From positions 1 to 40,023 of IMG/VR virus record IMGVR_UViG_2874945390_000002: a stretch of 40,023 nt of DNA; one strand, given 5' to 3'. Positions 21,001 through 27,000 of this stretch are shown here, one piece after another. The stretch's first letter is position 1, and the number at the start of each line of letters is the position of its first letter. The stretch is from a virus (lineage: Duplodnaviria; Heunggongvirae; Uroviricota; Caudoviricetes). A program made the position numbers.

Positions 21001-24000
21001 GAACGGACGAAGAACTGATGCATCTTGGGGAAGGTATTTCCGGAGGTGTGCGTTATGGACCAGATAGCCAACCTGGTCATTGATTTGGGGATTGATGCGG
21101 CAGAGTTTAAAAATGAAATTCCCCGTATCAAAAACCTTCTGAATGGTGCAGCCAGCGATGCAGAACGGTCTTCTGCCCGTATGCAGCGTTTTATGGAGCG
21201 TCAGACTCAGGCGGCCCGGCAGACAATGCAGGCGGCTTCTTCGGCTGCAACAGCAGCATCAGCCCATGCGCAGACGGTGGAAAAGAACGCACGGGCTCAT
21301 GAACGCATGGCCCGTGAGGTGGAACAAACCCGTCTGCGCGTGGATGCCCTGAATCAGAAAATGCGCGAGGAACAGGCGCAGGCCAGGGCACTGGCGGAGG
21401 CGCAGGATAAAGCGGCTGCCGCCTTTTATCGCCAGATTGACAGTGTGAAACAGGCCGGTGCGGGGCTTCAGGAATTACAGCGTATTCAGCAGCAGATCCG
21501 ACAGGCCAGAAACAGTGGCGGGGTTGGTCAGCAGGATTATCTGGCGCTGATTTCGGAGATCACGGCGAAAACCCGTGCCCTGACGCAGGCAGAGGAACAG
21601 GCCACCCGGCAGAAAGCGGCGTTTATCCGCCAGCTTAAAGAGCAGGCAACCCGCCAGAATCTGTCGTCTTCTGAGTTGCTTCGCGCCAGGGCGGCTCAGC
21701 TGGGGGTAAGCAGTGCTGCAGAAGTGTATATCCGCAAAATGGAGCGGGCAGGAAAAGCCACACATTCGCTGGGGCTGAAAAGTGCGGCAGCCCGGCGGGA
21801 GCTGGGGGTGTTAATCAGTCAGATGGCGCGCGGCAATTTTGGTGCGCTGAGGGGATCCGGGATAACGCTGGCTAACCGTGCCGGATGGACAGGCGCACTG
21901 ATGTCGCCGAAAGGCATGATGACTGGCGGCGTTATTGGCGGACTTGTCGCGGCGGTCCTGGGTCTGGGTAAAGCCTGGCATGACGGCCGGAAGGAGGGCG
22001 AGGAATTTAACCGTCAGCTGGCGCTGACGGGACATTATGCCGGTGTCACTGTCGGGCAGTTGTGGAAACTCAGCCGGGCCATATCCGGGAATGGTATCAC
22101 GCAACATGCGGCAGCCGGTGCGCTGGCACAGGTGGTGGGCAGTGGGGCATTTCATGGAAACGATATTGGTATGGTGGCGAAAGCTGCCGCACAGATGGAG
22201 CGATCGGTTGGCCAGTCGGTCAGCGATACCATAAATCAGTTTAAGCGGCTGAAGGATGATCCTGTAAATGCCGCGAAGGCGCTGGACAATGCGCTGCATT
22301 TTTTGACTGCCACTCAGCTTGAGCAGATACGCGTCCTTGGGGAGCTGGGGCGGTCCAGTGATGCGGCCCGGATCGCCATGTCTGCGCTGGCAGAGGAAAC
22401 TGGTAAACGCACATCTGATATTGATAATAATCTCAATGCGCTGGGTAGTACGCTGCAAACCTTGTCTGACTGGTGGAAGCAGTTCTGGGATGCGGCCATG
22501 AATATTGGTCGTGAAGACTCGCTGGATGCGCAGATTGATGCGTTACAGGAAAAAATTCAGCGCGCGAAAAAATATCCGTGGACAAACGCCACCGAAAAGG
22601 TGTAATGCCAGTCAGTTAAGCAACTGACTGGCTCTTTTTCGGGGCTGTGGGGTATTTCCAGGGCCTCTCCTTTACCACTCTCGGGAAGGCCCTTTCCCTT
22701 CTCGTCGGTAATTTCACAAGTTGTCCCATACTTGCAAGATCGCGCATCAGCTCCGGTATACGTCCCGGTGAAGCGCCCTGCAATGTCATCAGCATTCTCA
22801 TCACCATTCCGCATGATTCTGAGAAACTCAGTTGATTCGGCCAGTAACCTTTCAGATGTTCCGCCATTTTAATCATCTGATATCTCACCAGATTATAAGC
22901 CAGTAAGACACCCCACAGCTCTTGCTCCACAAGCTCCGGCTTTTTACTTCTCAGCGTCAGCCTGCTCAGTTGCATCGTCTGTTTTATCTCCCTGTATCCC
23001 AGTTCGATTTCCCAGCGATGACTGTACAGAGCCGCCATTTCTCCTCCGGGGAAGCGCATGGCGTCCGTCATCGACGTCAGCAGATGGCAGACTTTTCCTT
23101 TGCGCGTCACGGTCAGCAGGCGGGCTGTCACTTCATTTCCCAGTCCCGGCCACTTTTTTCGTGCCTGCGGGCTGGTTTTCAGCTTCACCAGATGATCGCC
23201 TTTACCCAGTTTTCTGAGCTCTTCATATTGCGCTCCCTTTCTGAGAGGTATCATCCAGTGGCGGTGTTCTCCCGCCAGGCTCCAGGCATTTAACAGTCCC
23301 AGTGAGTAATAACCTTTATCCATTAACGTCAGAATGTTATCGCCGGTTTGTTCTATAAGTTGCTCAGCAAGCTCATTTTCGCTGTTCTTCATCGTGCCGA
23401 AGGCTGCAGCCGTCAGCAGATGGCTGGTCAGTTCCATCTGGCAGACCATTTTGACCTGCGGGTAGAACGCCGGGTTCCCGGCATGTGTCTGGCGGGGGAA
23501 GGCTGCATCGTTCTCTGGTGTATCCGGTGTGCGCCAGAACACACCATCGATGGCCAGCAGGGTCAGGCCGCACCAGTGCGGATGCGGCGTGGCGTTATGC
23601 CAGAGCTGCGCTGTTTTCGTGAACACGCGGCGGACAGCCTCACTTCCCAGGCGCTGGCGGGCCTGAATAACGGCACTGGGGGCAACGAAGGGGCGATTGC
23701 CCGGCAGCATGATGTCCAGGCGATTCACAATCTGGTGAAGAGGTTCTTTACGCTCAAGCGCCATGCCAACAATACACCAGACCATCATTTCGAGGGGAAG
23801 ACGGCGCTTGCGTAGCGTTACAGTACCTGATTCGGCAAGGCAACGAGAGATGAGTTCGGGGTCGAGGTAATCCCCCAGAGAAGTCAGTGGGTTACGCAGA
23901 GAATCGTAACGGGATACCAGATCAAGAGCCTGTCCAATGTGCATAAAAAAATCCGGAAACAAGTGAGCGTTTCCGGATTCTTACACAGCCACTGGATCGG

Positions 24001-27000
24001 TCAACTGATCCTTAACTGATCGGCATTACTCCACACAGGTGGAGTACGATCAGCAGCGTCTTAACGATCTTCAGGAGAAAAAACGCCGGAAGGATTTGCA
24101 GGATGCAAAAGCGCAGGCAGAACGGAATTACCAGGAGCAACAGAAACGCCGGAATGCTGAAAATGCCGCGCTGAACCGGATGAATGAAACGGAAGCTGCA
24201 CGACATCAGCGGGAAATTGCACGTATTAATGCCATGCAGTACGCCGACCAGGCTGTCAGGGATGCGGCGATACAGCGTGAAAATGAACGTTACGAAAAAG
24301 CCATTAAGAAAAATACACGGGCAACCCGTAATGATGAGGCCACCCGGTTATTGCTGCAGTACAGTCAGCAGCAGGCACAGGTGGAAGGGCAGATTGCTGC
24401 TGCCAGACAGTCAGCAGGCATTGCCACTGAAAGGATGACTGAAGCGCATAAACAGCTTCTGGCCCTGCAGCAGCGCATCAGCGACCTGGACGGGAAAAAG
24501 CTGACGGCAGATGAAAAGAGTGTGCTGGCCCGTAAGAATGAGCTGATTCAGGCGCTGACGCTGCTGGATGTGAAACAGCAGGAGCTGCAGAAACAGACAG
24601 CGCTTAACGACCTGAGAAAAAAAACGGTTCAGCTGACCAGCCAGCTGGCAGACAAAGAACGTGCACTGCGTGAGCAGCACAATCTGGATATTGCCACTGC
24701 AGGTATGGGGGATAAGCAGCGGCAGCGCTACCAGGCACAGTTGCGCATCCGGCAGGAATACCGGCAACAGTTGCAACAGCTTGAGAATGACAGTCGCCAG
24801 AAAGGCACTTACGGGACGGAGGACTACCGGAGGGCTGAGGAGGTGCTGAAGGGGAGCCTGAAGCGACAACTGAATGAAAACAAACGCTACTGGCAGGAAC
24901 TGGAAGTGGCGCAGGGCGACTGGAAAAACGGTGCCATGCGGGCGTTTCAGAATTTTACGGCGGATGCGGATAATGCGGCGGGAACGGCAGAACAGATGTT
25001 TACAGTGGCATTCAGCAGTGCCGGTAATGCACTGGCGACATTCTGTACCACCGGTAAGCTGAATTTTAAATCCTTCACCTCTTCCCTGTTGTCAGATATG
25101 GCCAGAATTATGGCACAGATGGCCATGATGCAGGCGGTAAAGGGCGTCGGTTCTTTATTCGGCTTCACGACTAATGCTGATGGCGGTGTTTACCAGTCTG
25201 CTGATTTGAGTCGCTACAGTGGCACGGTGGTTAACCGTCCGACGTTTTTTGCTTTTACAAAAGGCGCGGGTGTGATGGGGGAAGCGGGACCTGAAGCCAT
25301 TCTGCCACTGCGTCGCGGTGCTGATGGTAAGCTGGGGGTTGTGGCGGATACTGGTGGTTCAGGCATGGTGATGTTTGCCCCGCAGTACAACATCGGGATC
25401 AATAACGACGGCACGAACGGGCAGATAGGTCCGGCAGCACTGAAGGTGGTTTATGACCTCGGGAAAAAAGCGGTCGCGGACTTTATGCAACAGCAGGCCC
25501 GTGATGGTGGCCGGTTAAGTGGAGCATACCGGTAATGGAGACGTTTCGCTGGAAGGTGCGCCCGGATATGAATGTGGTATCAGAGCCAAAAGTGGTGGCA
25601 GTGAAGCTGGGTGATGGTTATGAACAGCGTCGCCCGGCGGGACTGAATAATCTGCTGTCGACTTACAGCGTGACGATACGTGTTCGTAAAGGTGAACACC
25701 CACCTTTAAAAGCCTTTCTGGAACGGCACGGTGGCGTCCGCGCATTTCAGTGGACGCCACCTTATGACTGGAAACCGATCAGGGTGGTTTGTCGTAAATG
25801 GTCGGCAAGCGTGGGGGCGTTATGGGTGACTGTAACGGCCGATTTTGAACAGGTGGTGAACTGATGCAGGATATCCGGCAGGAAACACTGAATGAATGCA
25901 CCTGTGCGGAGCAGTCAGCCCGGGTGGAGCTCTGGGAAATCGATCTGACAGAGGTCGGTGGTGAGCGTTATTTTTTCTGTAATGAGCAGAACGAAAAAGG
26001 TGAGCCGGTCACCTGGCAGGGGCGACAGTATCAGCCGTATCCCATTCAGGGGGCGGGGTTTGAACTGAACGGCAGGGGCTGTGCTGCCCGTCCGACACTG
26101 ACGGTCTCTAACCTGCACGGCATGGTCACCGGTATGGCGGAAGATCTGCAGAGTCTGGTCGGCGGAACGGTGGTCCGGCGTAAGGTTTACGCCCGTTTTC
26201 TGGATGCGGTGAACTTCGTCAACGGAAACAGCGACGCCGATCCGGAACAGGAGGTGATCAGCCGCTGGCGCATCGAGCAGTGCAGCGAACTGAGCGCGGT
26301 CAGTGCCTCTTTTGTGCTGGCCACACCAACGGAGACGGATGGCGCGGTTTTTCCGGGGCGTATCATGCTGGCGAATACCTGTATGTGGACTTACCGTTCT
26401 GATGAGTGTGGTTACACGGGCAGGGCAGTGGCTGACGAGTTCGACAAACCAACGACGGATATCCGGAAGGACAAATGCAGCAAGTGTATGCGCGGGTGTG
26501 AGCTGCGCAACAATACCGGTAATTTCGGCGGTTTCCTTTCCATCAATAAACTTTCGCACTAATCCCATGACACAGACTGGATCAGCAATTCTGGCGCACG
26601 CCCGGCGATGTGCGCCAGCGGAGTCGTGTGGCTTCGTGGTGAGAACGCCGGAGGGAGACAGGTATCTTCCCTGCGAGAATATCTCCGGTGAGCCGGAGGC
26701 GTATTTCCGGATGTCGCCGGAGGACTGGCTGCGGGCACAAATGCAGGGTGAGATTGTGGCGCTGGTCCACAGTCATCCCGGTGGTCTGCCCTGGCTGAGT
26801 GAGGCCGACCGGCAGCTGCAGGTGCAGAGTGATTTGCCGTGGTGGCTGGTCTGCCGGGGGGCGATTCACAAGTTCCGCTGTGTGCCGCATCTCACCGGGC
26901 GGCGCTTTGAGCACGGGGTGACGGACTGTTACACGCTGTTCCGGGATGCTTATCATCTGGCGGGGATTGAGATGCCGGATTTTCATCGCGGGGATGACTG

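Follow-up and report, generated by a model that had tools for sequence, protein, structure and literature searches.

IS4 of Escherichia coli and Shigella (ISfinder IS4), the type element of its family, is an insertion sequence (IS) of 1426 bp with 18-bp inverted repeats matching at 16 of 18 positions and one DDE transposase with a YREK motif, and it leaves duplications of 11-14 bp at A-rich/GC-hairpin/T-rich, terminator-like targets. Repeats of 10-13 bp have been described for the IS4 subgroup (PMC2266710). Two copies of this element, alike in length, inverted repeats, transposase, type of target, and length of duplication, are present in a Shigella boydii prophage (genome CP026836.1) within IMG/VR record IMGVR_UViG_2874945390_000002, of which the whole stretch from position 1 to 40,023 (40,023 nt) was analyzed and is called the window here. 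Copy 1 interrupts the tape-measure gene H and copy 2 interrupts gene J. Copy 1 departs from the type element in that its two duplication copies are not identical, and the left one is identical to the IS4 duplication found between the genes mug and rpoD. The data suggest that an ordinary IS4 transposition was followed by a non-reciprocal patch, that is, an ectopic gene conversion, from the mug-rpoD IS4 junction, which we regard as the probable history of this locus.

Quasi-palindrome template-switch mutagenesis generates clustered substitutions in one step, templated by a nearby inverted arm. The H junction is similar in having a templated cluster at a hairpin-forming site and different in that the window holds no template, the sole matching sequence being at a distant locus. 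IS rearrangements in Shigella, exemplified by three S. boydii IS4 copies described below (L138, L139, and L149), also leave IS4 with mismatched flanks; there the foreign sequence takes up the entire flank, whereas in H it is confined to a 13-mer and the gene is otherwise contiguous. Ectopic conversions in the rRNA operons and the Rac/Qin prophages of E. coli K-12 ER2796 were called by clustered single-nucleotide polymorphisms together with a perfect donor at another locus (PMC4444293). The H junction is comparable in its clustered substitutions toward identity with another locus, its presumed non-reciprocal character, and its untouched surroundings, but its proposed tract leaves the repeat and enters unique flanking DNA, ending in 7 bp of identity that is available because the IS chooses similar targets. 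In the literature searched, no description was found of an IS duplication copy replaced by the flank of another copy.

Flanks of IS4 copy 1 in gene H

Copy 1 was bounded by the inverted repeats TAATGCCAGTCAGTTAAG and TAATGCCGATCAGTTAAG, which begin with TAATGCC and match at 16 of 18 bases. Its transposase contained the domains PF13006 (Nterm_IS4) and PF01609 (DDE_Tnp_1) in precomputed Pfam assignments, and the YREK motif was read off the translation as Y313-x2-R316-x3-E320-x6-K327. The element differed at 2-4 positions from IS4 copies that bear the annotation 'IS4-like element IS4 family transposase' in E. coli and S. boydii, and at 2 of 1426 positions from copy 2, to which it is inverted. Reading the window confirmed the 1426-bp length of copy 1 and the flanks quoted for it in the original prediction, namely ...ACAAACGC CACCGAAAAGGTG to the left of IS4 and CTCCACACAGGTG GAGTACG... 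to the right.

The fragments of H were compared with locus L001 of E. coli CFSAN029787, which holds the closest of the matches, an intact gene named 'phage tail tape measure protein'. When the joined H flanks were searched against complete E. coli genomes, 1200 query bases paired with 1187 bases in the best matches, all intact genes. A global alignment of about 7.2 kb between the window and L001 demonstrated that the two differ in length at one place only, where the window has 13 nt more, immediately left of IS4 (positions of all features are given in Table 1), while L001 carried ...GGACAAACGC CTCCACACAGGTG GAGTACG... one time. H differed from L001 by 7 mismatches in 3042 nt, the nearest to the junction being 189 bp upstream and 192 bp downstream. 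Excision of IS4 with either 13-mer yielded a 3042-nt open reading frame (ORF) of 1013 codons. In its interrupted form, the N-terminal fragment ends in ...NATEKV on translation, with the stop codon TAA made by the first IS4 bases.

The original prediction had taken the mismatched flanks as a sign of a small or adjacent deletion within H, and had proposed counting the missing codons against an intact orthologue. No base was missing relative to L001 and the number of missing codons was zero. The H fragments are contiguous and separated by a 13-bp segment of duplication length, the outcome that the original prediction had itself named as refuting it, and the deletion reading therefore fails. A loss of codons together with one duplication copy is favored by the non-identical flanks and by nothing else, and we give it almost no credence in view of the 13-nt surplus and the restored 1013-codon ORF; an IS-adjacent deletion was rejected on the same alignment, in which the target is complete.

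The right 13-mer belongs to the quasi-palindrome CTCCAC-ACAG-GTGGAG. Compared in register, the left and right 13-mers were identical at 9 of 13 positions (probability of at least 9/13 by chance, 1e-3), so that the left 13-mer reads as the right one with four clustered substitutions. The claim that the flanks are not direct repeats was correct in that they are not identical, but their match in register indicates that they are related. The surplus has the length of a duplication (13 bases, in register, against 10-13 bp in the IS4 subgroup; PMC2266710) with 9/13 identity. Read from its sequence, copy 1 is best described as having a duplication-length segment with an altered left copy, not as lacking a duplication.

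Copy 2 was flanked by CAGCAGACTGGAG on both sides. The joined J flanks exceeded intact gpJ genes by 13 nt (800 vs 787 nt), and copy 2 therefore represents a simple insertion, as had been predicted from its perfect 13-bp repeat. An inversion between the two inverted IS4 copies had been considered improbable from the outset, and it was rejected here: the duplication of copy 2 is intact, and the gene order H-M-L-K-I-J is collinear with L001.

The mug-rpoD junction and other IS4 sites

To the left of copy 1, a megablast search of the junction matched many E. coli genomes at 100% identity starting from position 22584, 19 nt outside the IS end, and these matches represent an IS4 copy lying between mug and rpoD. 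Over the 19 nt AAACGCCACCGAAAAGGTG and the first 350 nt of the adjoining IS4, the window showed 100% identity to the junction that E. coli VL40 (L004) and related genomes have at mug-rpoD. The left 13-mer is identical to the mug-rpoD IS4 duplication, and with the AAACGC common to both sites the match is 19/19. When empty, the mug-rpoD site is a terminator hairpin, GATAAAAAACGC CACCGAAAAGGTG GCGTTTGTGC, containing the 13-mer once; when occupied, it shows the perfect 13-bp duplication CACCGAAAAGGTG, and its junction reads AAAAACGC CACCGAAAAGGTG followed by IS4. In S. boydii ATCC 9905 (L148), IS4 is present in this hairpin with the perfect duplication CACCGAAAAGGTG and in the same orientation, its right inverted repeat (the end lying at 22603 in copy 1) on the mug side; this IS4 differed from copy 1 at positions 732 and 865 only. 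Shigella genomes with the PatA variant of CP026836.1 had either IS4 at mug-rpoD or contigs breaking in that hairpin. The E. coli genomes retrieved with the common Mug variant all had an empty site.

E. coli VL40 and E. coli CFSAN029787 (L005) carry IS4 in the same 13-bp mug-rpoD target in opposite orientations, and the site is empty in many genomes (L150-L159). Given the opposite orientations across lineages and the many empty sites, the mug-rpoD hairpin looks, from these sequences, like a hot spot that was independently hit more than once. In Shigella dysenteriae 1012 (L170, AAMJ02000003.1), the two copies of the mug-rpoD duplication differ by one base (CACCGAAAAGGAG vs CACCGAAAAGGTG), which is either a point mutation or an error in the draft sequence.

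Decay of a duplication by single bases, as in this S. dysenteriae genome with one mismatch in the left copy, is the precedent for four independent point mutations in the left duplication copy of H. However, the probability of four substitutions in 13 bp against the background of 7 in 3042 was about 3e-8, and all four would have had to yield the base present at mug-rpoD, which multiplies the probability by about 1/81, so that we attach a negligible weight to this explanation.

The four substitutions keep the reading frame and replace amino acids (STQ to TEK), as might be seen between alleles, and the original H could have had ...CACCGAAAAGGTG..., with the right flank later swapped from another allele or with two IS4-disrupted alleles recombined. 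If the left 13-mer were allelic, AACGCCACCGAAAAGGTGGAG would be the form expected in an intact H allele. Among 1,298 matching records from 5,426 E. coli genomes, none was an H allele with ACCGAAAAG, and even the best match had exactly the four mismatches. Both flanks are also near-identical to the L001 allele, with the nearest mismatches at the distances given above, and the 13-mer would have to equal that of mug-rpoD by coincidence; we consider such an allelic mosaic highly improbable.

Neither a direct nor an inverted second copy of the left 13-mer was found in the window, and quasi-palindrome correction from a template nearby was rejected on that ground. Metagenome contigs contained no mug-type 13-mer at an IS4 end with a non-mug upstream flank. 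One match among species-representative genomes placed the mug-type 13-mer at a non-mug locus; on reading, it was not IS4 and was discarded as a chance match.

The similarity of the H and mug-rpoD sites follows the target preference of the element. Twenty IS4 targets, reconstructed from contigs of S. boydii, E. coli, viruses, and metagenomes, had a GC-rich hairpin between an A-run and a T-run (AAAA(C/T)G-hairpin-C(G/A)TTTT), with duplications of 11-14 bp, and both the H site (TGGACAAACGCCTCCACACAGGTGGAGTACG) and the J site conformed to this pattern. Between the H and mug-rpoD sites, 22 of 35 positions agreed, with AAACGCC perfectly matched at the left, while on the right side they had only G.GT..G in common. 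The overwritten side is the side with the perfect 7-bp match between H and mug-rpoD outside the duplication. Because the two sites are alike, IS4 could both land in H and have sequence copied from mug-rpoD rejoined to H.

In a metagenome survey of IS4 right ends (120 loci), complete copies mostly had perfect 11-14 bp duplications, and copies with unrelated flanks may be assembly chimeras. All nine S. boydii IS4 copies that retained a duplication had a perfect one. Three copies from S. boydii GCA_047308285.1 and ATCC 9905 (L138, L139, and L149) had unrelated flanks and no duplication. In L139 and L149 the flanks of different sites were combined, which points, as far as sequence can tell, to an IS4-mediated rearrangement; the flanks of L138 were reverse complements of each other (GTCCCCGGCGGCC and GGCCGCCGGGGAC). 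In human-gut metagenomes, one copy (L127) had the perfect 14-bp duplication CAGCTCAAGGGCTG, and a second with the same locus and IS4 position (L135) had CAGCTTCGTGCTG on the side of the right inverted repeat and CAGCTCAAGGGCTG on the other, representing either a second hybrid duplication or an assembly chimera of two strains.

A reciprocal exchange between IS4 copies, by inversion or translocation, would swap whole flanks. Such swaps do occur in S. boydii, as in the three copies above, and several metagenome contigs have similarly unrelated flanks. At H, however, only 13 bases differ (at most 19 with AAACGC), the gene resumes directly upstream (GTGGAC...), the region is collinear with L001, and the duplication of copy 2 is perfect, so a reciprocal event is close to impossible in our judgment. 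The broader suggestion of an IS-mediated recombination event at copy 1 agrees with the direction of the evidence, except that the partner would be a third IS4 outside the window and the event non-reciprocal.

Kinship of the IS4 copies and the proposed history

Four positions (93, 429, 732, and 865) vary among these IS4 copies, and all four alter the protein (Table 1). Both prophage transposases depart from known IS4 in carrying D311A, which is common in S. boydii, together with T210I, which within a collection of 15 billion proteins was restricted to these two copies, each prophage transposase being found at one place. Transposases with I210 alone, I210 with E423, or I210 with A311 and E423 were absent from the same collection. 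Since T210I is confined to copies 1 and 2, the two are most economically viewed from their sequences as sisters, one having come from the other within the prophage or both from a lost I210 parent. All four combinations of positions 93 and 732 are present in S. boydii, which requires conversion or recurrent mutation among copies. Position 93, at which copies 1 and 2 differ, lies 93 bp from the altered flank, and copy 1 has the mug-rpoD allele there.

The D311A change (23031 in copy 1, 31445 in copy 2) is carried by most S. boydii IS4 copies and lies two residues before Y313. The variant was found at at least 10 different sites and therefore evidently did not block the spread of the element.

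In the history that we propose, one prophage IS4 copy would have derived from the other, or both from a lost parent with I210. By cut-and-paste transposition, IS4 would have entered the quasi-palindromic H target ACAAACGC-CTCCACACAGGTG-GAG, duplicating the 13 bp CTCCACACAGGTG and deleting nothing. Later, the left duplication copy, beside the right inverted repeat (22603), would have been overwritten with sequence from the IS4 junction at mug-rpoD. Replacement probably extended into the outer IS, at least to position 93 and short of position 732; if copy 1, like copy 2, once carried C at position 93, then 93 or more outer IS bases would have been overwritten too. The minimal tract would be 22591-22597, or 22591-22695 if position 93 was co-converted, and the maximal tract 22584-23333. 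Position 732 (23334) would set the inner limit of the patch, and the outer end would lie in AAACGCC.

The inner end of the patch would have been resolved in the homology between IS4 copies (1.4 kb of identity), and the outer end in the 7 bp of AAACGCC, where resolution would be possible because the target specificity of IS4 makes its insertion sites alike. Strand invasion with synthesis-dependent annealing, or template switching, could have produced this tract. The L166F change would have arisen in copy 1 after the patch. A single conversion event is the most economical explanation of five differences. The 13-bp surplus, the intact target, the cluster of four substitutions, and the perfect match to the junction at mug-rpoD were observed directly; from them we infer the order of events, a recombinational mechanism, and a donor copy in CP026836.1.

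Several points weigh against this history. The outer homology is only 7 bp, followed by the 9/13 further matches, far below the length usual for RecA-mediated exchange, and the event must then have been rare or based on microhomology. The presence of the donor IS4 in CP026836.1 is deduced from related genomes, and the difference at position 93 may instead reflect a change in copy 2. The pre-conversion N-terminal fragment, ending in ...NASTQV, was absent from the protein collection. The H insertion is known from one assembly and is a single case beside nine other S. boydii IS4 copies with perfect duplications. The exact N-terminal and C-terminal fragments of H and both transposase proteins were found only in S. 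boydii CP026836.1, the source genome of the window, and no complete E. coli genome covered the left junction of H with IS4.

A junction seen in one assembly raises the matter of an assembly or polishing artefact, in which reads from the mug-rpoD junction "corrected" the similar H junction, the two differing at just 4 bases over more than 100 nt. Against this, the copy-specific polymorphisms at positions 93 and 865 are preserved in both prophage IS4 copies, and reads reaching the unique H sequence upstream would map unambiguously. An artefact appears very unlikely on these grounds.

The identity of the left 13-mer to the mug-rpoD duplication could also have arisen in one step, if IS4 had moved from mug-rpoD to H with 13 nt of donor flank still joined, at its right inverted repeat, to the 5' (non-transferred) strand. 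The flap would have annealed to the similar 13-nt target gap and been ligated instead of removed, and after replication one side would have retained the donor 13-mer. This would account for a patch that matches the duplication exactly in length and register, for the alteration of one side only, as one daughter duplex would give, for the 9/13 identity of the donor and target 13-mers, including the 5 bases adjoining the IS end, and for the mug-rpoD allele at position 93 of copy 1. IS4-family YREK transposases such as those of IS10 and IS50, however, release the element through hairpins, blunt-ended and free of donor flank, and such a transfer conflicts with this. In view of the unique T210I shared by the two copies, it would further demand an additional event at position 93 of copy 2; the nine S. 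boydii copies retaining a duplication were all perfect, and the scans yielded no non-mug locus with the left 13-mer beside an IS4 end. We consider this one-step origin unlikely. The more general proposition, that IS4 sometimes excises non-bluntly and that the 13-nt donor duplication on the 5' strand is ligated into a resembling target, a resemblance that the target specificity of the element would favor, is likewise improbable. Insertion followed by conversion from the mug-rpoD junction is the history that we retain.

Prophage context and meaning of the altered duplication

Table 1. Positions in the window of the IS4 copies, their flanks, the interrupted genes, and other prophage features, with the alleles at variable IS4 positions
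Feature	Position	Strand	Remarks
IS4 copy 1	22603-24028	-	1426 bp; right inverted repeat at 22603, left at 24028
IS4 copy 1 transposase coding sequence	22616-23962	-	Pfam Nterm_IS4 and DDE_Tnp_1
Left 13-mer CACCGAAAAGGTG	22590-22602		Surplus 13 bases relative to intact H (single alignment gap)
Right 13-mer CTCCACACAGGTG	24029-24041		Unaltered native target; single occurrence in the intact orthologue L001
AAACGCC	22584-22590		7 bp common to the H target and the mug-rpoD site (flanks of window, L001, L004, and L148)
Gene H, N-terminal fragment	21055-22605	+	516 codons; Pfam TMP_2; start is the annotated start of L001
Gene H, C-terminal part	24029-25535	+	ORF called from GTG at 24039, 498 codons
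IS4 copy 2	30448-31873	+	1426 bp
IS4 copy 2 transposase coding sequence	30514-31860	+	
Left duplication copy CAGCAGACTGGAG of IS4 copy 2	30435-30447		In gene J
Right duplication copy CAGCAGACTGGAG of IS4 copy 2	31874-31886		
IS4 position 93 = T in copy 1	22695		E423; allele of the S. boydii mug-rpoD copy; candidate co-converted site
IS4 position 732 = A	23334 (copy 1), 31142 (copy 2)		T210I; only in copies 1 and 2
IS4 position 865 = A	23467		L166F; private to copy 1
Alleles of copy 1 (in H)			93 T (E423), 429 G (A311), 732 A (I210), 865 A (F166)
Alleles of copy 2 (in J)			93 C (G423), 429 G, 732 A, 865 G
Alleles of common S. boydii IS4 type			93 T, 429 G, 732 G, 865 G
Alleles of minor S. boydii IS4 type			93 C, 429 G, 732 G, 865 G
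Integrase	75-1361		
IS3-family copies	3345-4610 and 5655-6920		Direct; 2310 bp apart; first 366 bp identical; each with ORFs of 100 and 272 codons (HTH_Tnp_1, rve)
IS110-family transposase	16364-17560	-	DEDD_Tnp_IS110, Transposase_20
First tail-fibre ORF	33490-35622		Opens with full 'prophage tail fibre N-terminal' domain
Second tail-fibre ORF	36194-37108		Opens with full 'prophage tail fibre N-terminal' domain; 304 codons

Elsewhere in the window, the two IS3-family copies enclose about 1 kb of prophage DNA, and the IS110-family transposase lies just upstream of the tail genes, at the place expected for head genes. Together with the integrase and the two IS4 copies, these elements show a heavily degraded lambdoid prophage. 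The second of the two tail-fibre ORFs is much shorter than the first, which suggests a duplicated or truncated tail-fibre gene.

For the cell, the altered duplication would have no functional consequence because H was already inactivated. Within the S. boydii prophage, it may date and order the events of decay, in which sister IS4 copies were acquired and one was patched later. Were the one-step transfer of donor flank true instead, it would bear on the mechanism of IS4 transposition and depart from the hairpin mechanism assumed for the family, and a one-sided "memory" of the donor would make donor-recipient pedigrees of IS4 readable from genomes.

An imperfect duplication beside an IS is usually read as a sign of deletion or rearrangement, and this is wrong for H, where the gene is complete. 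The mismatch in the left flank would instead record a transfer of information from another IS copy. The case would represent a cleanly resolved gene conversion between IS copies that spilled into the flank, a minor example, unusual in its tract end, of a process already known, and it suggests that the target specificity of a transposon can itself supply the microhomology for such a conversion.

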